From contig CAYIZI010000001.1 in NCBI GenBank assembly GCA_964368135.1, forward strand, positions 42,926 through 106,925: a stretch of 64,000 nucleotides of DNA, written 5' to 3'. The notes below the pieces were generated by a model. The model worked only from the letters and a program-made list of their open reading frames with translations. It ran no database searches and was not told the DNA's origin. Shown in pieces: positions 1 through 51,047 of the stretch (the stretch's first letter is position 1; the number at the start of each line of letters is the position of its first letter). The DNA comes from an uncultured Candidatus Saccharibacteria bacterium (GTDB lineage: Bacteria > Patescibacteriota > Minisyncoccia > 2-02-FULL-40-12). The translations under genes were made by a program, and so were the position numbers.

Positions 1-2
1 TC

Positions 3-125
3 AAGGTTGAAATCTGTTCTGCTTGCCATCCTTTTTACACCGGCAAAGGTAAGATAGTTGATACTAAAGGAAGAGTGGAAAGATTTAAACGTAGATTAGA
101 AAAAACCCGAAAGAGAAAAAAATAA
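3..125 (+). CDS. rpmE: 50S ribosomal protein L31, 3' end (gene runs off the window start)
   Basis: Frame-3 translation ...[40 protein letters not shown]; C-x-x-C/HPFYTG signature of zinc-type L31; TAA stop at 123-125. Confidence 0.8.
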
Positions 126-135
126 CATCCCAATC

Positions 136-169
136 TACAAATTCGTAAATTGGAATTCATTCGTAAATT
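136..169 (+). promoter_or_regulatory. Two direct TTCGTAAATT boxes (142-151, 160-169) immediately upstream of the prfA TTG start; a third copy lies at 942-951
   Basis: Exact 10-mer repeated three times within 1 kb, each upstream of a plus-strand gene; contains a TAAAT -10-like core. Confidence 0.3.
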
Positions 170-906
170 TGAATGATATGGACGAAGTCATTATGGAAAT
201 CCGGGCCGGAACCGGCGGTGAAGAAGCAGCCCTCTTTGCCTCTAATCTATTCAATATGTATAAAAAATACGCCCTTAAGCAGGGATGGAAATTTAACATT
301 CTTGATTATAGCCCCACTACTTTAGGCGGCTTCAGGCAGATTACTTTTGAAATAGCCGGGCCAGAGGTGTTAAAAAAACTTGCTCGGGAAGCCGGAGTCC
401 ACCGGGTTCAGCGGATCCCTAAAACCGAAAAATCGGGGCGGGTTCACACCTCCACGGCCACGGTGGCCGTCCTGCCTAAAGTAAAAGAAACCGATGTTAA
501 AATAAATCCAAACGACTTAGAGGTCTCTTTCTTCCGTTCATCCGGGCCAGGCGGCCAAAATGTCCAAAAAGTTGAAACCGCCGTCCGGATTAGACATAAA
601 CCGACCGGTATTGTAGTATCCTCTCAAGAAGAACGTTCCCAGCAAAGAAACCGGGATAAAGCCCTGGAAATTCTAAGGTCCAAGCTATGGCAGGCCCGGC
701 AGGAAAAGCAAAGCGGCGAGATAACCGAAGAAAGAAGAAAACAGATCGGGCAAGCCCAAAGGGCGGAAAAAATAAGAACCTATAATTTTCCTCAAGACCG
801 AGTGACTGACCACCGAGTTAAAAAGAGCTGGGGCAATTTAGAAGGAATAATGGATGGTGAATTAGACAAGATCGTTGAAGTTCTTTCAAAAAAGAGTAAT
901 AAATAA
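169..906 (+). CDS. prfA: Peptide chain release factor 1, domains 2-4 only (no N-terminal domain 1)
   Basis: EIRAGTGGEEAALFA, decoding tripeptide P-K-T (QRIPKTEKSGRVHTS), GGQ (SGPGGQNVQKV) and RTYNFPQDRVTDHR all align with RF1 residues ~104-360; TTG start 43 nt after the rpmE stop. Confidence 0.8.
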   Translation: MNDMDEVIMEIRAGTGGEEAALFASNLFNMYKKYALKQGWKFNILDYSPTTLGGFRQITFEIAGPEVLKKLAREAGVHRVQRIPKTEKSGRVHTSTATVAVLPKVKETDVKINPNDLEVSFFRSSGPGGQNVQKVETAVRIRHKPTGIVVSSQEERSQQRNRDKALEILRSKLWQARQEKQSGEITEERRKQIGQAQRAEKIRTYNFPQDRVTDHRVKKSWGNLEGIMDGELDKIVEVLSKKSNK

Positions 907-941
907 CACCAAATATACGAATGTATCCCTATCTGCGAATC

Positions 942-951
942 TTCGTAAATT
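942..951 (+). promoter_or_regulatory. Third TTCGTAAATT box, upstream of the 1025 gene
   Basis: Identical 10-mer to 142-151 and 160-169. Confidence 0.25.
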
Positions 952-1024
952 GATCGTCGAAGGTTCCGCCGATTAGCGAAGCTAATCGTAGCGGAATCGC
1001 TGTTGAATACATTTGTAGATTGGA

Positions 1025-1675
1025 ATGAGATATATGGCCGAAGAACAGCAAAACCAAGGAATGAGAGCTTTGATCCCAGAATCAAGACAATCCGAGTTAA
1101 AGCCAGAGCCGCCTCAACAACCCCCCCAATTACCTGGTCCAGTTTTTGAACCAAAGCCGGGTTGGGGAGGAAAATTCTCAAATTGGTGGAAAAAGAATTT
1201 CATCAAAGTGGCTCTGCCGATAATCATAGCGGCGGTTATAGTAGCAGTAACTATCTTTCTTAGAACCAGGCAAGAACCGGAACAAGAATCCAAGACCCAA
1301 GTTCCCGGAGCTACCGACCAAATTAGGACTGAAGAACAAGTAATCGTTGAAGAAATAACCACTGAAGAAGGCCGGGTTGAAAGCATTTACCGGGCTGCCG
1401 CCCAAAAAGGTGAAGGCACCACTCACTTAGCCAGAAAAGCTTTGAAAGAGTATCTAAAAGAAAACTCATCGGCTGGCGAAGGACTAAGGGCCGAGCATAA
1501 AATTTACATTGAGGACTACCTGAAAGACCAGCACGGAGAAAGATTTTTGGAAATAGGCGAAGAACTGGAATTCTCCTCCAACGACATTACTCAAGCGGTT
1601 GAAATGGCGAAAAGTTTATCGGAAAATCAATTATCCAACTTGAGCCAATTTGTTCCGCTGGTCTCGGGGTTATAG
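1025..1675 (+). CDS. Hypothetical membrane protein (Pro-rich N-terminus, one TM helix, C-terminal soluble domain)
   Basis: ORF with PEPPQQPPQLPGP low-complexity, hydrophobic segment VALPIIIAAVIVAVTIFL; no recognisable family. Confidence 0.4.
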   Translation: MRYMAEEQQNQGMRALIPESRQSELKPEPPQQPPQLPGPVFEPKPGWGGKFSNWWKKNFIKVALPIIIAAVIVAVTIFLRTRQEPEQESKTQVPGATDQIRTEEQVIVEEITTEEGRVESIYRAAAQKGEGTTHLARKALKEYLKENSSAGEGLRAEHKIYIEDYLKDQHGERFLEIGEELEFSSNDITQAVEMAKSLSENQLSNLSQFVPLVSGL

Positions 1676-1704: not shown

Positions 1705-1798
1705 TTAGGCGAGCGTACTGGCTCGCCGTAAAAATGCCCCGGGTTTCGCCCAGAAGGCGAAAATAAACTAAAAATCCGCCTCACCGGCGGATTTTTAG
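1705..1798. terminator. Cluster of three stem-loops between convergent genes; the last is a bidirectional intrinsic terminator
   Basis: ggcgagc-gtact-ggctcgcc (1709-1727); ttcgcc-cagaa-ggcgaa (1744-1760); aaaaatccgcc-tcacc-ggcggattttt (1770-1796) with A-run and T-run flanks. Confidence 0.55.
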
Positions 1799-1799
1799 T

Positions 1800-2498
1800 T
1801 TATTTCTTTTCCTTGCCCTCCGAAGCCTTGGCGGAGGGAGGTTCTTTCCCTTTTTCCGTAGCCGGCGCTTCTGCCTCTGGTTTTTCCTCCTTTTTAATAA
1901 CCTCAACCTCCTCAACTGACGGCGGCGCCGCTTCTTCAATCTCCTCTTTTCTCGGCTCCTGAACAAGGGCAATCACGTCTTCGGGGTTGGCATTAATTTT
2001 CACCTTATCTGACAAAAGAATATTTTTAATTTTCACTTCATCGCCGAAATTATTTAAAACTGAAATATCAATCTGAAGTTCGTGGGGCAAATCCTGGGGC
2101 AGGGCTTCCACTTCAAGTTCATTGACCGTCTTAACCAAAATACCGCCGCTTTTAACCGCTTCTGATTCGCCTATCACGACAACTTGAACATTTGCCTTTA
2201 TTTTTTCCAAAAGATTAACTTTATAAAAATCGGCGTGAGTAATCTGATCGGTGATCGGATCTCTCTGAATATCTTTTATCACTGCCGGCTCAACTTTCGC
2301 CCCTATTTTTAAATTTATCAAAGTTGACTCACCGGCTTTTTTAAAGACTTTTTCAAAATCTGTGTATTTAATCTGAATCGGAACTGTCGCAAAGTCGTGG
2401 CCATAAACAACCGATGGCAAAAACCCCTCTTTTCTCAAAGAATTAAGCGCCTTCCCGACTGATTCGCGTTTCTGGGCCTGGAGTTCAATACGATCCAT
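1800..2498 (-). CDS. rplY: 50S ribosomal protein L25 / general stress protein Ctc with Lys/Glu-rich C-terminal tail
   Basis: MDRIELQAQKRESVGKALNSLRKEGFLPSVVYG... typical L25/Ctc N-terminus; start trimmed to the ATG at 2498 (the 41-aa ORF extension upstream is not L25-like). Confidence 0.8.
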   Translation of the reverse strand: MDRIELQAQKRESVGKALNSLRKEGFLPSVVYGHDFATVPIQIKYTDFEKVFKKAGESTLINLKIGAKVEPAVIKDIQRDPITDQITHADFYKVNLLEKIKANVQVVVIGESEAVKSGGILVKTVNELEVEALPQDLPHELQIDISVLNNFGDEVKIKNILLSDKVKINANPEDVIALVQEPRKEEIEEAAPPSVEEVEVIKKEEKPEAEAPATEKGKEPPSAKASEGKEKK

Positions 2499-2566: not shown

Positions 2567-4033
2567 TTATTCTTCTGGTAATTCTTCTTTCTGAACCTTG
2601 GGCCTCTGTTTCTCCAACCACTCTTTCACCATCATCGTGGCCCGCGCGTCATCTTCATTGTATTTGATGAGCTTATTTAAAAATTCTTTCTTCTGCGTCT
2701 GAAGCCATTGGTCATACCACAAAACCGCTTCTCCCCCGCCCGCGCCTTCATCCTGCCACTTATAACCGGCATAACCAGCCACATCTTTTAAACTATAAAA
2801 ATACAACGGCAGAACTACTGAACCGGTTGTAATGTAATACAAATCTAAACTATTTTCCCTGAATTTCCTCATTAAGTCTGATTGAGGGCCATATCTTTTT
2901 TCCAACCGATTTAAAACATGCTTCTCATAATATCCGTAATGGTAGAGAACAAAATTTTCCTGCTTCTCTAAAAATTTTAAAAAATCTTGCCAGATTTTTT
3001 CCTCGTCTTTTTTGTTTTTAGCCAAATAGTATTCAAAGCTTGGAGTTTTTCGGTCAGCTTTTTTAATTAATAATCCAAAGAGAAAATCTGTCCCCTGGGT
3101 TGGATCGCTTTCAACATCAAAATAAATTTCGGTTTCTGCTTCCGGAAAATTATATTTTTGGATAATTAGGGGTTGGTCTGAAACCAGGACTTGGGCCTGA
3201 TTATGGAGCCGGACCAACTTATCAAAATTCCAGCTCGAGAGACTGTCGCGCAACCAAGACAAATCTGCTTCGGCCATGTCTTTCAATGTTTTTATACCTA
3301 TTTCATAAAGCTCTTTTTGGTCTCTCTGGCTGATTCCGTGAATTAAAGAAACATCATCACAGCCTCTGGAATCTTGCTCGCAAATTGAAAACCAGGGGCT
3401 TCTTTTGCAGCCACCTTTCAAAAAAGGCACTGGTTTTTCACCATTCAGAACTTTTTCTATTTCCTGCAAAGTAAAATTAAATCTATCCAAAAAAGGCTCA
3501 ATTAAAAAAGATCTGGTTTCACCGTCAGCATTTATGATTACTGCTTCGGCCGGCCGGATGCCCTGGATGTTTTCCAGAATCAAACTGGCGAATACCAAAG
3601 GGAATTTATATTCATCCCGAAGCTCTGGGTCGTTTCTGATATCGTAAGCTACATAGTACCAATCACCGAAATTACTCTTGCGGACTTTCTCGCCAAAGTC
3701 TTTAAGTTCGCTAATCGGCCGGGCTTCAATAAAATCAGGCTCGCCGACCCAGTGATGATGCATTAAAACTGGTTTATAAATATTTTTACCCTGTTTCATC
3801 AGTTCAACTGTGGCTAAAAATGCCTCATCAAGATCATTATAAAGTTCTGGCTTTATTTCCACGAATTCTTTTTGAGACAAGACTTTGTGCGGCTCGCGGA
3901 TGCGGCCAGAATAAAGCATCTCCAAAACCGGCGGAATATGTTTATGCTTTTTCTGGTCTTCGTAAATGTCATACCAAATCCAATGAGGGCAAAGGAAAAA
4001 TTTATAGAAGTGTTCGGATTTTATTTTTTGCAT
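2567..4033 (-). CDS. RecB-family nuclease, TM0106-like (Cys-cluster PD-(D/E)XK nuclease domain plus RNase H-like domain)
   Basis: Cys cluster CKRSPWFSICEQDSRGCDD, PD-(D/E)XK-like core, C-terminal IYFDVESDPTQGTDFLFGLL RNase H-like exonuclease segment; ~490 aa as in the TM0106 family. Confidence 0.5.
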   Translation of the reverse strand: MQKIKSEHFYKFFLCPHWIWYDIYEDQKKHKHIPPVLEMLYSGRIREPHKVLSQKEFVEIKPELYNDLDEAFLATVELMKQGKNIYKPVLMHHHWVGEPDFIEARPISELKDFGEKVRKSNFGDWYYVAYDIRNDPELRDEYKFPLVFASLILENIQGIRPAEAVIINADGETRSFLIEPFLDRFNFTLQEIEKVLNGEKPVPFLKGGCKRSPWFSICEQDSRGCDDVSLIHGISQRDQKELYEIGIKTLKDMAEADLSWLRDSLSSWNFDKLVRLHNQAQVLVSDQPLIIQKYNFPEAETEIYFDVESDPTQGTDFLFGLLIKKADRKTPSFEYYLAKNKKDEEKIWQDFLKFLEKQENFVLYHYGYYEKHVLNRLEKRYGPQSDLMRKFRENSLDLYYITTGSVVLPLYFYSLKDVAGYAGYKWQDEGAGGGEAVLWYDQWLQTQKKEFLNKLIKYNEDDARATMMVKEWLEKQRPKVQKEELPEE

Positions 4034-46370: not shown

Positions 46371-49300
46371 TTACTTACTGATTATTGATAAAAACGCCTT
46401 GCTTGTTTTACTCCAGTCAAAATTACTGGCCCATTTTACTGCTTCCTGGCTCATCCGGTCGCGGAGATCCTTGTCTCGAATTATCGTTAAGATACTCTCC
46501 GCGAATGCATCGCTATTGCCGTAAGAAACAAGGCGGCCAGTTTCCATATTTTTCACAGAATCCCTTAAGCCCGGTACGTCAGAAGCCACTATCGGGGTGC
46601 CGCAAGCATTGGCTTCAATCGTGGTAATGCCCCACCCTTCCATAAACGAAGGATTTACAAATACCCAGGCTTTTTGAAAAAGTTCTATTTTCTCTTTTTC
46701 AGAAACCTTTCCTCTAAATACTACTTTGCCGTTAAGATTAAGTTCAGAGGCTAATCTTTTTAACGAATTTTCTTCTTCGCCGCTGCCGACAATGACCAAC
46801 CGGGCATCATCAACTTGTCTTATAACCTTTTCAAAAGCTCTTACTAAAACATCAACCGACTTATAGGCTTTAAGCCTTCCCAAATAAAGAATAGTCGGTT
46901 CCGGACTCTTTCTCCCAAGAGTTAAATTTTTAGAATTGACTCCGGGATGGACTATTTCAATTCCTTTCTTAGTTCCAAGGCCAAAACTCTGAATATCTTT
47001 TTTGCTTGATTCCGAAACCGTAATAAACTTTACATTCCGGTAGACTATGGGCATCAAATCCTTCTCTAAAAATATTGCCAGCTTTGCTAAGGGTTTAGGC
47101 AAAGAATGCCTGAAGACTTCCTGATGGATATGATGGATAAGACAATAAATCGGCTTCCTTGAATAGATGGGCGTAAAAAAAGGAATGCCGTTATGACAAT
47201 CAACTATGATGTCATATTTGCCTCTGAATTGGGTCAGGTAGTAAATAAAAGCCCAGAGGTAAACAAAGTAAAACCCGCCTCTTCTTATGATTTCAACCCC
47301 ATCTATAATTTCTCTTCTCTTTGAATAACTGTCATTGCCGCAAAAAACAGTGACCTGGTGTCCATCCTTGACCCACTGTTTGGCGATTTCGTGGACATAA
47401 AGTTCTGCTCCGCCACCATATATATGCCTTGTGTCTCTCCAGTTAAATATAAGAATCCTCTTGCCGAGCTTCGCCATCGGAGCCTCGGTTTCAATAGGTC
47501 TAAACGCATCTTTCAAATCAATAATGCCCCTCCAGACAAACTTAAGCCTGCCCTCAAGTACGTGGAATAAATAAACCAGGCCCAACCCAAAGATGCTGGC
47601 CCATAAAATAACATTGACTATCTCTTCGACGCTGCCGTGATTTAGGATTATGCCGATAGACATAAACAATGAAGCAGTCATTGAAATAATCGGGAATATA
47701 AATTGCCTTTTAGCCAAATGATAGACGACTATAGAATTTGAAATCGTGAAAACAGTAAGCGCGAGAGTGTAAATATTAAGATAAGGCAGAATGGCCAGCG
47801 TCTTGGAGCCAAAAAGTATCGGCACGGTTAAATTGCCCAGAGGGCCCAAAAAAATAAACCCGGCTAATGACAAAAGGACGGTTGAACCAACCAGCAGCTC
47901 AAATGTCTTTTTAGTATTTCTCTTTAATCCCTCGTCTCGGCCAATCAAAGTAATCATAAATATATTGGGCAGAGAGCCGAGAAAATATATCATCTTGCCG
48001 ACAAGCGATATTAGAGTGTACTCGCCGGCCAAACGCGGCGATAAAAAGTGTTTGACTAAAATAATGTCAATGCTTAAAAATATCGTCGCCGACATTAAAG
48101 TAAGTATTGAGGCGTAGAAAAACCTGCCCGGAAACTTATGGTTTTTAGTCTGAATAAAATCTTCAGAATGCCTTGAAACAGCCAAAACAGAAGCCATTGA
48201 AGCAACCGCTATGGATATCGGAATTGAAAGATAAACTAAATGATTTAACCCATACCAGGCGAAAAGAGCCGCCGCAATAAACTTACTTACTGATTCAAAA
48301 AGAATAACGAAAGCAACACTGGTAAAGTAAAGATTGCCATTAAGAAACCCCCTGTTTGCCGACGCAATCACTCCCAAAGTCAGAACCGGAGTGAACATAA
48401 AAAGGATGGACTGGCTGCTTATGTTAAAGAAATTAGAAAGGAATGAAACTGAAACTATCCACATTACCGATATGCCTAAGGCAATAGGAATTGCTTTGTT
48501 CAAAGTTGATTTGAGAAACGCAAGCGCCGACCCCTCACCCTTTTCAACGGCCAGATGAGCAGTCTTATGGTTTACCGTTGAGGAAACCGCGCCCATAAAT
48601 ATCGCCGCTACTGACCATAAAGTATTAACCAGTATCACTAGACTAAGTTCTTCAAAAGACAAAACCCTTCCCAGGAAAGCGTTAAAAAGAAAATTAAGGA
48701 AATTGGCGAACATCATCGCCGCAATCATAAGCGCCGCTCCCGAAAGAGCATTTTCGGTCAGCGATAACGGCAAAAATTTATTAGTGGTTTTTTTCAGCCA
48801 AGAATCTTTCTTTATAAAATTAAGAGTCAATTCAGGTTTCGGGGCCGGTCCCGATTTTATCGTCCCTAAAACAGGTAAGGGTTTTAATTTCTTTAAATGC
48901 AGGCCGTGCTTGGTCTTTTCCCAGAAATGCGGCTTAATGAAAAGCTGGTAAGTTGCCATTACCGCGGCAATACTCATAAAGAACCAATAGAAAGGTATTA
49001 AAAAGACATATTTTATTATTGGCCAGTGGCCCCTTTTGGCACAGCCGATCATGTAATAGTAAAAATAGAGAAAATTCCCGAAGACCAGAGAAAAAACGGC
49101 GATATAAAAGACCGGGGTCGGATATATTGATTCTATGGTCGGACCGACAACGGAACGCAGGGCGAAATAAGAGATCGTCATAAACCACAAAATTGGATTT
49201 ATAAGCATAAAGACAATTTTGCCGCCGATGTTAAGCTGGAAAAGAAAAGTATGGATGCCGCTTTTTTTCAAAAATTCCATCGGCTTTCTCATATGAACCA

Positions 49301-51047
49301 GATATGTCTGCATATAGCCCTTAATCCACCTTGACCTCTGCCTTATCCAGTTCCAAACCTGACTATTTGCTTCTTCAAGAGTTATTGAATCAATAATCGC
49401 CGTGTTGAAACCCTGTTTAAATAACCGCACCCCCAAGTCGGCGTCTTCGGTAACGTTGAAGGGATCCCAACCCTTAAGATTCCTTAAGTCGGCGGTCCGG
49501 AAATGGTTGCTGGTGCCGCCAAGAGGAATTGAAGTATTAATTGACTGAAGACCCGGCAGAATGATTTCAAACCACAACGAGTACTCGGCCGTAAAAAGCC
49601 GGGTCAAAAGATTTTGATTGGTGTTATAATAATTGAGTTTTGCCTGAAGACATTTAACTTTTTCTGGCACTCTTTGAAAAGCCAAATAAGCTTTCTTAAG
49701 CTGCTGGGGTTCGGGCATATCTTCGGCGTCGTAAACGACAAGATACTCACCCTTGGCTGAATTAAGACCATAATTGCAGGCCTTGGGCTTGGTCTTAGGC
49801 AAAGAGTGAGGAACGATTACTATCCTTACGTAGCTTGGCAAATCTATTGACCTGGCAGTATCTATTGTCTCTAAGTCGTTTTCTTCTAAAAGCAGCTGGA
49901 CATCCAATTTATCCTTAGGCCACTCCAATTTGCTTATTGAATTTAAAAATTTTGGAAGAACCGCTGATTCCCGATAAAGCGGGCAGAGAATCGCATAAAC
50001 CGGCAGAGAACTTTCGTCTATCCGGGAAAGTTCCTCATCAGTAAAACTAAGTTCCGGAGGATTATGCAGACTTTTTGTGATAAGGAATAAATTAAACAAA
50101 ACGTCAAAAAAGTATAGAGAGCTTAAAACAGCCATTAAAGCTATGGCCGTATAGAGCGGGAAAAATAAAAATCCGGCAACAGCCAAAATAACGGATAGAA
50201 ATATTAAAAATTTCTGGCTGGCGGTAAATGTGATTAGGGCCGAGGTTTCACTGTCAAGATTAGAATGAGTAATGAACCTTCTGCCTTTATGGGCCATTCC
50301 GGCGCCGATCATACTTGATTCGTCTTGCGGCGGTATTTGAATCGGCTTTTTCTTTTTTAACTTGTTGGCCAACGCGTTAGTGCCTATTTCCCAACTGGCT
50401 TTTATGACATTGATTTTTGATTCACCGGAATGCCTCTTTTCAAAATCTATATTAACGGTGGCTATTTCATGGCCGGCGTATCTGGCGTTAACCAAGAATT
50501 CCAGATCAAAGGTCCACTGGGACGGATTAACTGCTATTTCCTTGGTTATCTGTTTTTTAAAAACTTTTAACCCTGACTGGACATCGCACTTAAGCCCGTG
50601 AAGAATCCGGCCAAAAACAAAATTAAAACCTTTGCTGGCCAGCTTTCTTAAGGGGCTTATGCCTTTATAACGTCTATTGGCCACAACTACGCCGGCGCCA
50701 TCTCTAATTTTTCTCACCATTTCCGGTATCGCTTCCGGCGGGTACTGCAGGTCAGCGTCAATCATCCCGACAGTGTCATACTTGGCATAATCAAAACCCT
50801 CAAGAATAGAAAAGGCCTTACCCTTTTTGCCTTTCTTCAAATGACAACTAATTGGATATTCGTCGGCCAGATTATTGGCAATCTTAACCGTATTATCGGT
50901 TGAGTGGTCATCTATTGTGACTATTTCATACTCAATACCGCCTTTTTTTAAAGCATTATCAATCCTCTTGACTAACTTCTGGATATTTCCTTCTTCATTA
51001 AAAGTAGGAATAATTATTGATACTTTTTCAGTGTTTTTGGCCTCCAT
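46371..51047 (-). CDS. 1558-aa multi-domain glycan-assembly fusion: GT2 (DPM1-like) + processive QxxRW GT2 + Wzx/MOP-like flippase domain + GT4
   Basis: aa 8-230 GT2 (IIIPTFNEE, DDHSTDN, DADLQYPP); aa ~345-715 cellulose-synthase-like GT2 (DAEDMP, QRSRWIKG, C-terminal TMs); aa ~755-1175 12-14 TM MOP-like; aa ~1195-1558 GT4 (E-x7-E: FMEGWGITTIEANACGTPIV). Confidence 0.75.
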   Translation of the reverse strand: MEAKNTEKVSIIIPTFNEEGNIQKLVKRIDNALKKGGIEYEIVTIDDHSTDNTVKIANNLADEYPISCHLKKGKKGKAFSILEGFDYAKYDTVGMIDADLQYPPEAIPEMVRKIRDGAGVVVANRRYKGISPLRKLASKGFNFVFGRILHGLKCDVQSGLKVFKKQITKEIAVNPSQWTFDLEFLVNARYAGHEIATVNIDFEKRHSGESKINVIKASWEIGTNALANKLKKKKPIQIPPQDESSMIGAGMAHKGRRFITHSNLDSETSALITFTASQKFLIFLSVILAVAGFLFFPLYTAIALMAVLSSLYFFDVLFNLFLITKSLHNPPELSFTDEELSRIDESSLPVYAILCPLYRESAVLPKFLNSISKLEWPKDKLDVQLLLEENDLETIDTARSIDLPSYVRIVIVPHSLPKTKPKACNYGLNSAKGEYLVVYDAEDMPEPQQLKKAYLAFQRVPEKVKCLQAKLNYYNTNQNLLTRLFTAEYSLWFEIILPGLQSINTSIPLGGTSNHFRTADLRNLKGWDPFNVTEDADLGVRLFKQGFNTAIIDSITLEEANSQVWNWIRQRSRWIKGYMQTYLVHMRKPMEFLKKSGIHTFLFQLNIGGKIVFMLINPILWFMTISYFALRSVVGPTIESIYPTPVFYIAVFSLVFGNFLYFYYYMIGCAKRGHWPIIKYVFLIPFYWFFMSIAAVMATYQLFIKPHFWEKTKHGLHLKKLKPLPVLGTIKSGPAPKPELTLNFIKKDSWLKKTTNKFLPLSLTENALSGAALMIAAMMFANFLNFLFNAFLGRVLSFEELSLVILVNTLWSVAAIFMGAVSSTVNHKTAHLAVEKGEGSALAFLKSTLNKAIPIALGISVMWIVSVSFLSNFFNISSQSILFMFTPVLTLGVIASANRGFLNGNLYFTSVAFVILFESVSKFIAAALFAWYGLNHLVYLSIPISIAVASMASVLAVSRHSEDFIQTKNHKFPGRFFYASILTLMSATIFLSIDIILVKHFLSPRLAGEYTLISLVGKMIYFLGSLPNIFMITLIGRDEGLKRNTKKTFELLVGSTVLLSLAGFIFLGPLGNLTVPILFGSKTLAILPYLNIYTLALTVFTISNSIVVYHLAKRQFIFPIISMTASLFMSIGIILNHGSVEEIVNVILWASIFGLGLVYLFHVLEGRLKFVWRGIIDLKDAFRPIETEAPMAKLGKRILIFNWRDTRHIYGGGAELYVHEIAKQWVKDGHQVTVFCGNDSYSKRREIIDGVEIIRRGGFYFVYLWAFIYYLTQFRGKYDIIVDCHNGIPFFTPIYSRKPIYCLIHHIHQEVFRHSLPKPLAKLAIFLEKDLMPIVYRNVKFITVSESSKKDIQSFGLGTKKGIEIVHPGVNSKNLTLGRKSPEPTILYLGRLKAYKSVDVLVRAFEKVIRQVDDARLVIVGSGEEENSLKRLASELNLNGKVVFRGKVSEKEKIELFQKAWVFVNPSFMEGWGITTIEANACGTPIVASDVPGLRDSVKNMETGRLVSYGNSDAFAESILTIIRDKDLRDRMSQEAVKWASNFDWSKTSKAFLSIISK

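Follow-up and report, generated by a model that had tools for sequence, protein, structure and literature searches.

The window, by which we mean the whole 64,000-nt stretch of patescibacterial DNA that was analysed, opens inside rpmE, the gene for ribosomal protein L31, and this gene is followed on the same strand by prfA, encoding the class-I peptide chain release factor RF1 (Table 1). At the corresponding place, a public contig carries a complete rpmE for a 72-aa L31 with the Pfam domain PF01197. The original prediction had described a reading frame of 245 aa at 169-906 (+), beginning 43 nt past the rpmE stop; this frame is present as described, runs from TTG 169 to TAA 904-906 and is the longest one after rpmE. 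The further claim that the stretch upstream holds nothing like domain 1 proved correct, as rpmE ends 43-52 nt upstream and no such coding lies between. Two details have been revised. First, the frame had been thought to be open upstream to position 58. TAG codons lie in this frame at 55-57 and 97-99, the latter being the nearest in-frame stop, and the at most 23 codons that are open contain no start codon; no in-frame start codon was found between 100 and 168. Second, the gene had been thought to begin at the TTG. Every fully truncated orthologue begins at an ATG 5-6 codons ahead of (I/L)(M/L)EIRAG, and the counterpart of this conserved start in the window is ATG 178, giving MDEVIMEIRAG and a product of 242 aa. 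Judged by this conservation, ATG 178 is most probably the better start candidate, whereas public gene calls place the start at ATG 193 (237 aa). In two related species (L003 and L004, positions ~2980-3000), rpmE and the truncated prfA share an ATGA, in which the stop of the former overlaps the start of the latter. This arrangement leaves no space for domain 1 and suggests that L31 and RF1 are translationally coupled in these species.

Table 1. Positions of prfA, its conserved segments and other features of the window
Feature	Position	Strand	Basis or remark
rpmE (L31), 3' end	1..125	+	cut by the window start; frame 3; stop TAA 123-125
rpmE-prfA spacer	126..177	.	too short to encode a domain 1
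ATTYGTARATTKGAAT copies upstream of prfA	127..142, 141..156, 159..174	.	first copy inverted, the other two direct
prfA, RF1 domains 2, 3 and 4 only	178..906	+	profile matches, PDB alignment, conserved start
RAGTGGEEA, first strand and helix of domain 2	202..228	+	equals T. thermophilus RF1 112-120
Decoding loop QRIPKTEKSGRVHT	409..450	+	PxT tripeptide; equivalents of T. thermophilus Q181, H193 and T194
PxT tripeptide (PKT)	418..426	+	residues 84-86
GGQ catalytic motif, domain 3	550..558	+	sequence; G120, G121 and Q122 invariant (alignment A1)
VVxCQ cysteine position, domain 3	622..624	+	residue 152 of the 245-aa frame
RTYNFPQDRVTDHR, C-terminal segment (domain 4), conserved among class-I release factors	775..816	+	sequence and alignment
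Spacer 3' of prfA	907..1024	.	ATTYGTARATTKGAAT copies at 910-940 (inverted, weaker), 942-951 (partial) and 1011-1026 (direct)
Gene for a 216-aa membrane protein	1025..1675	+	
Hairpin	1766..1800		15 bp, GC-containing, T-runs on both sides
Glycosyltransferase fusion	46371..51047	-	single frame of 1,558 aa

Several other features were observed around prfA and elsewhere in the window. The 16-nt motif ATTYGTARATTKGAAT has six matches with at most 3 mismatches in the window (1.8 expected), and four of the six flank prfA. The last copy of the 3' spacer abuts the start of the next gene, as the copy at 159-174 does for prfA, and the start regions that follow are similar (GAATGA-TATGG before prfA, GAATGAGATATATGG before the next gene). 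Duplication of a promoter or of a short-leader cassette could account for these repeats; the motif is absent from the nearest relative (L005). The next gene encodes a protein that is rich in Pro and Gln at its N-terminus and has a single predicted membrane helix, and for which only a sub-threshold DUF7442 match and no family assignment were obtained. This protein was rejected as an RF1 partner, being conserved only in L005, the closest relative (49% identity). The hairpin between this gene and the convergent rplY (L25) is probably a bidirectional terminator, and an Rfam scan of positions 1-2000 revealed nothing near prfA and sub-threshold matches only, located at the hairpin. Far downstream, the 1,558-aa frame fuses several glycosyltransferase domains (GT2, GT2-like, GT4/GT1) and heads a long run of sugar-nucleotide and glycosyltransferase genes on the same strand (38.7-51 kb); a type IV pilus-like cluster comes next (51.6-58.5 kb).

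The window uses the standard code. Among 60 long reading frames covering 91% of the window, 36 end in TAA, 16 in TGA and 8 in TAG; UAG is therefore a stop codon, and RF1 activity is needed by the organism.

Domain architecture and family assignment

The original prediction had described the product as RF1 domains 2-4 without the ~100-residue domain 1, and Pfam, NCBIfam and PDB alignments agree with this description. In Pfam, only profile positions 97-194 of the 194 of PCRF were matched, and the RF-1 domain was matched in full (136 bits). The NCBIfam RF1 equivalog model gave 372.8 bits over profile positions 101-343 of 347, and the score lies under the cut-off of 400 because ~100 positions, a quarter of the model, are absent; another RF1 model gave 366.9 bits against a cut-off of 423.25. 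The protein aligned without gaps to residues 105-341 of 354 in T. thermophilus RF1, 109-344 of 360 in E. coli RF1 and 86-320 in T. maritima RF1, with 52-57% identity to solved RF1 over domains 2-4. Several ribosome-bound RF1 chains in the PDB comprise 242-259 residues and begin where the window protein begins. An AlphaFold model of moderate confidence (pLDDT 67.5) had RF1 chains as its top PDB matches, which adds little to the sequence identity. Domain 1 (~105 residues) is wholly absent, and all else is present.

The decoding and catalytic residues are canonical, including PKT, Q81, H93, T94, G16/E19 and GGQ, and the P-K-T tripeptide, GGQ and C-terminal segment named in the original prediction were located at the positions given in Table 1. 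Among 43 truncated homologues, RAGTGGEEA is invariant, as are Q73, P76, K77, T78, H85 and T86 (alignment A1 numbering). The corresponding segment of T. thermophilus RF1 contains G116 and E119, which we take to be the readers of the stop-codon base U1 in the 2008 termination-complex structure.

In the profile comparison proposed earlier, RF1 was the best model (372.8 bits), followed by RF2 (242.8 bits) and PrfH (TIGR03072; 85.8 bits against a cut-off of 166.65, with a match over 8-206). An identity as RF2 (PrfB) was rejected on the score and on the presence of PKT instead of SPF; SPF is the tripeptide of RF2, and SxY that of PrfH (PMC1586002). ArfB was also rejected, as its model gave 54.4 bits against a cut-off of 100, the match was confined to the GGQ region, and domains 2 and 4 are present in the window protein.

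Searches for other release factors and for a separate domain 1

No second RF1 copy was found when the window and 82 loci were searched with RF1 by tblastn. Likewise, Pfam and NCBIfam scans of 40 window reading frames and of the called genes 10 kb on either side revealed no prfB, prfC, rtcB or prmC, so that the search for further prfA, prfB, prfC and rtcB genes suggested earlier has yielded none in the ~84 kb covered. A methyltransferase gene upstream, considered as PrmC, encodes PIMT instead. In a wider survey, the degenerate pattern GVHRLVRxSPFD was applied to metagenome contigs and 120 RF2 loci were obtained, none of which could be assigned to Patescibacteria; no truncated RF2 was found among them, and all complete frames have at least 170 residues before the motif.

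Domain 1 might also have become a separate small protein, encoded elsewhere and joining the core in trans. The helices of domain 1 form a flexible module with a loose attachment (PMC1586002), and the sequence examined amounts to 84 kb of the genome, both of which leave some room for a split gene. However, tblastn with 42 Patescibacteria domain 1 sequences gave nothing better than E = 0.35, chance level, in the 84 kb, and the progressively shorter N-terminal remnants of the intermediates described below point to decay rather than fission. We thus regard a split gene as very unlikely.

Integrity, orthology and graded truncation of prfA

An identical protein is encoded on a 126,877-bp ENA contig from Hainich groundwater, on a 164-kb NCBI contig (equal to ENA Hain_H51_01um_R3_30) and in a Logan assembly. 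When homologues were clustered at 90% identity, the 57 nearest clusters (72-86% identity) had lengths of 232-269 aa, all but one of them falling within 232-247 aa. When the window gene was aligned by codons with five species-level orthologues, dN/dS values of 0.04-0.11 were obtained (0.106 and 0.053 in the two pairs with unsaturated dS), and the window prfA is thus under purifying selection. The score under the equivalog cut-off and the occurrence of broken RF1 genes in metagenome assemblies, e.g. the internally duplicated P0126 and P0127, might raise the suspicion that prfA is a pseudogene here, or that a normal gene was truncated by an assembly error or a frameshift. Such an origin has practically no chance of being correct: the independent assemblies (contigs of 127 kb and 164 kb) are identical, no domain-1-like coding separates rpmE from prfA, the dN/dS values are low, and dozens of species share the architecture and the conserved start, some of them with the ATGA overlap. 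As far as sequence can show, it is refuted. In the RF1 proteins encoded by the two duplicated genes (477 and 481 aa), a stretch of ~120-130 residues from the decoding loop to domain 3 is exactly repeated; they probably reflect errors of assembly and not genuine tandem factors.

One genome per GTDB species was scanned for the locus, giving 80 loci. Whether it encodes a full-length or a shortened RF1, prfA has rpmE as its immediate, co-oriented upstream neighbour at nearly all Patescibacteria loci, and the interval between the conserved L31 segment and the RF1 core decreases from ~430-460 nt to 60-80 nt in the clade of the window. The window gene is the positional orthologue of full-length prfA. 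The length of the N-terminal extension was recorded at 54 usable standard-code Patescibacteria loci: it is full-length, about 104-154 aa (mostly 105-119), at 31 loci, 57-75 aa at 3, 20-41 aa at 8 and 5-13 aa at 12. Summarised as steps, the series runs from about 105-119 aa through 57-75 and 20-45 aa to 5-8 aa. Alignment showed that in forms of ~300 aa, domain 1 is reduced to its first two helices, with the ~50 residues after them missing, that a 261-aa form keeps only a dozen residues of domain 1, and that the clade of the window keeps none. This graded shortening suggests the stepwise erosion of one gene, not a paralogue. In the Chloroflexota outgroup, RF1 is uniformly full-length. A set of 50%-identity representatives contained fragments and fusions and was too noisy for a length census.

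Two further kinds of RF1 were encountered. At seven loci (L037, L050, L053, L054, L057, L059 and L075), with 27-35% GC, RF1 contains in-frame TGA codons and would have ~364-368 aa if TGA is sense, with domain 1 kept; they presumably belong to lineages with genetic code 25 (Gracilibacteria/Absconditabacteria), where RF1 is the sole class-I factor. The domain-1-less RF1 of P0131 (232 aa) is also shorter by ~10-12 residues in the part of domain 2 that connects the first helix to the strand preceding GVHRVQR, and may represent a further reduction step.

These results bear on the remaining possibility that the gene encodes a specialised paralogue, PrfH-like or a rescue factor, beside a full-length RF1 located elsewhere. 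Domain 1 is absent as in PrfH, whose model does give a match, NCBI uses names such as "PCRF domain-containing" or "release factor-like", and our view of the genome is limited to the window plus 10 kb per side. Nevertheless, the gap between the RF1 and PrfH scores, the retention of PKT and of every RF1 decoding residue, the absence of RtcB upstream or within 10 kb on either side, the occupation of the rpmE-prfA slot that holds full-length prfA in relatives, and the graded series connecting to full-length orthologues all argue against a paralogue, which we consider highly improbable. The "PrfH-like paralogue" put forward in the original prediction is therefore rejected. Its other suggestion, a lineage-wide minimal termination factor, is borne out as regards the lineage-wide truncation, the integrity of the gene and its selection; with three assemblies, the conserved start and the dN/dS values, the comparison of orthologues it called for has shown a lineage-wide truncation and not an assembly or frameshift defect.

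Recurrence of the loss

In neighbour-joining (NJ) trees of the core, truncated RF1 occurs in a Parcubacteria clade, which includes the window, and in a separate clade with a WWE3 genome. In 57 of 60 bootstrap trees, 10 or more full-length sequences from Patescibacteria lay between the two. Domain 1 has thus been lost at least twice. The WWE3-like clade was clean in 60/60 replicates; the broad Parcubacteria group was free of full-length members in only 31 of the 60, and there may therefore have been more than two losses. Only four positions distinguish the truncated from the full-length Patescibacteria cores, and no compensatory substitution common to both truncated clades was found among them. 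The VVxCQ cysteine is replaced by serine in 10/10 truncated Parcubacteria sequences; it is kept in the WWE3-like truncated clade and invariant in full-length RF1 of Patescibacteria and Chloroflexota.

Discussion

The gene at this locus is very probably the ordinary housekeeping prfA, not a paralogue, in which the whole of domain 1 has been lost by progressive 5' erosion and the functional core has remained complete. With this core, the product most likely acts as a minimal RF1. We propose that the superdomain formed by domains 2 and 4 would read UAA and UAG in the 30S decoding centre through PxT, Q, H and T, and that the GGQ of domain 3 would then act in the peptidyl-transferase centre, resulting in hydrolysis of the peptidyl-tRNA. 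The lost helical domain 1 is the part that reaches the L11/L7-L12 stalk region and provides the coupling to RF3 in canonical factors. Since domain 1 is lost, binding and release of the factor would have to rest on the core alone, and dissociation might be spontaneous, or might occur by ribosome rotation with RRF and EF-G, rather than being catalysed by RF3. Work by Mora et al. (2003), as summarised in PMC1586002, indicates that E. coli RF1 without domain 1 keeps stop recognition and codon specificity, peptide release in vitro and function in vivo, and that it no longer stimulates nucleotide exchange on RF3. The same article describes RF3 as dispensable and missing from small genomes. By analogy with this precedent, termination by the window RF1 would be independent of RF3. 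Together with the PDB chains of 242-259 residues, the E. coli deletion also leads us to read the window protein as a self-sufficient module for decoding and catalysis.

A functional RF1 could also have lost domain 1 through a change in its ribosomal partner, i.e. the N-terminal domain of L11 or the stalk rRNA, and not through the absence of RF3. Many bacteria without RF3, e.g. Bacillus subtilis, retain domain 1, as RF3-less bacteria generally do, and the absence of RF3 alone thus does not explain the loss. Genes for L10 and L7/L12 lie near the locus, and L11 is not among the genes seen there. The ribosomes of Patescibacteria are without some proteins, and their rRNA is altered (PMC11665869). 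In E. coli, ribosomes without L11 are reportedly inactive with RF1 (reviewer comment, PMC1586002), which suggests that the contact between domain 1 and L11 matters in some systems. On the other hand, a common partner change finds no echo in the core, where the two independently truncated clades have no substitution in common. We regard the change of partner as a possible but less favoured reason for the loss; a change of L11 or the stalk in reduced ribosomes is nonetheless a live alternative or additional cause.

A broader proposal can be put forward tentatively: in the Parcubacteria and WWE3-like clades, the whole of termination may proceed without domain 1 and RF3, with RF2 likewise truncated or stalk-free and with these features tracking a change in L11 or the stalk. 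We would sooner doubt than accept this proposal at present. If it is true, these clades would possess a natural minimal bacterial termination system, and the layer formed by domain 1, the stalk and RF3 would be an accessory addition to a self-sufficient two-module factor.

To our knowledge, domain 1 occurs in essentially every described bacterial RF1 and RF2, and its necessity has been probed only by engineered deletions in E. coli. The roles ascribed to it are contact with the stalk and L11, and RF3-driven recycling. Searches of the full-text literature and of the supplement of the Hainich groundwater CPR paper turned up neither a housekeeping RF1 that naturally lacks domain 1 nor a census of RF3 in Patescibacteria. 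The gene reported herein, from a groundwater patescibacterium, is a natural and clade-wide counterpart of a deletion so far made only in the laboratory. Wild lineages without domain 1, numerous and diverse, with intermediates and at least two independent origins, represent a natural experiment on the purpose of this domain, and the minimal RF1 sequences are ready for in vitro translation and structural work. Truncated RF1 might also mark Patescibacteria in which the ribosome and its factors are reduced. Because these proteins miss the NCBI equivalog cut-off, they are publicly labelled "PCRF domain-containing protein", "peptide chain release factor-like protein" or "hypothetical protein", and automated surveys would wrongly score prfA/RF1 as absent.

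The window protein can be compared with four known systems. First, it resembles canonical RF1 in that the PxT loop, the G/E pair reading U1, the Q/H/T residues, GGQ and RTYNFPQ..TDHR are identical to those of T. thermophilus and E. coli, and its rpmE-linked housekeeping position is that of full-length prfA in related Patescibacteria. The RF1 profile match, PxT with the accompanying residues, GGQ and the rpmE-prfA context are all found, whereas the four-domain architecture is not: the first 104-108 residues are lacking, and the protein thus falls under the equivalog cut-off. Second, ArfB and ICT1 are reduced relatives of class-I release factors that also operate without domain 1. These factors have no codon-reading domains 2 and 4, and a C-terminal tail, basic in ArfB, probes the empty mRNA channel; in contrast, the window protein retains the full decoding superdomain. 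Third, PrfH (RFH) shares the absence of domain 1 and the presence of GGQ. In PMC1586002, PrfH is described as having altered decoding surfaces and an SxY-type motif, as invariably following rtcB, and as occurring alongside RF1 and RF2. The window protein differs in having PKT and rpmE upstream, and in scoring 86 bits with the PrfH model against 373 for RF1; of four PrfH features compared, only the absence of domain 1 was observed, and a score above the TIGR03072 cut-off, a co-oriented rtcB-family gene just upstream and SxY were not. Fourth, the E. coli RF1 with an engineered deletion of domain 1 (Mora, Zavialov, Ehrenberg and Buckingham 2003, as summarised in PMC1586002) has the same architecture. 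That deletion was made in the laboratory, in a host that has RF3, whereas the form in the window is natural, selected and lineage-wide, was reached via intermediates and has at least two origins.
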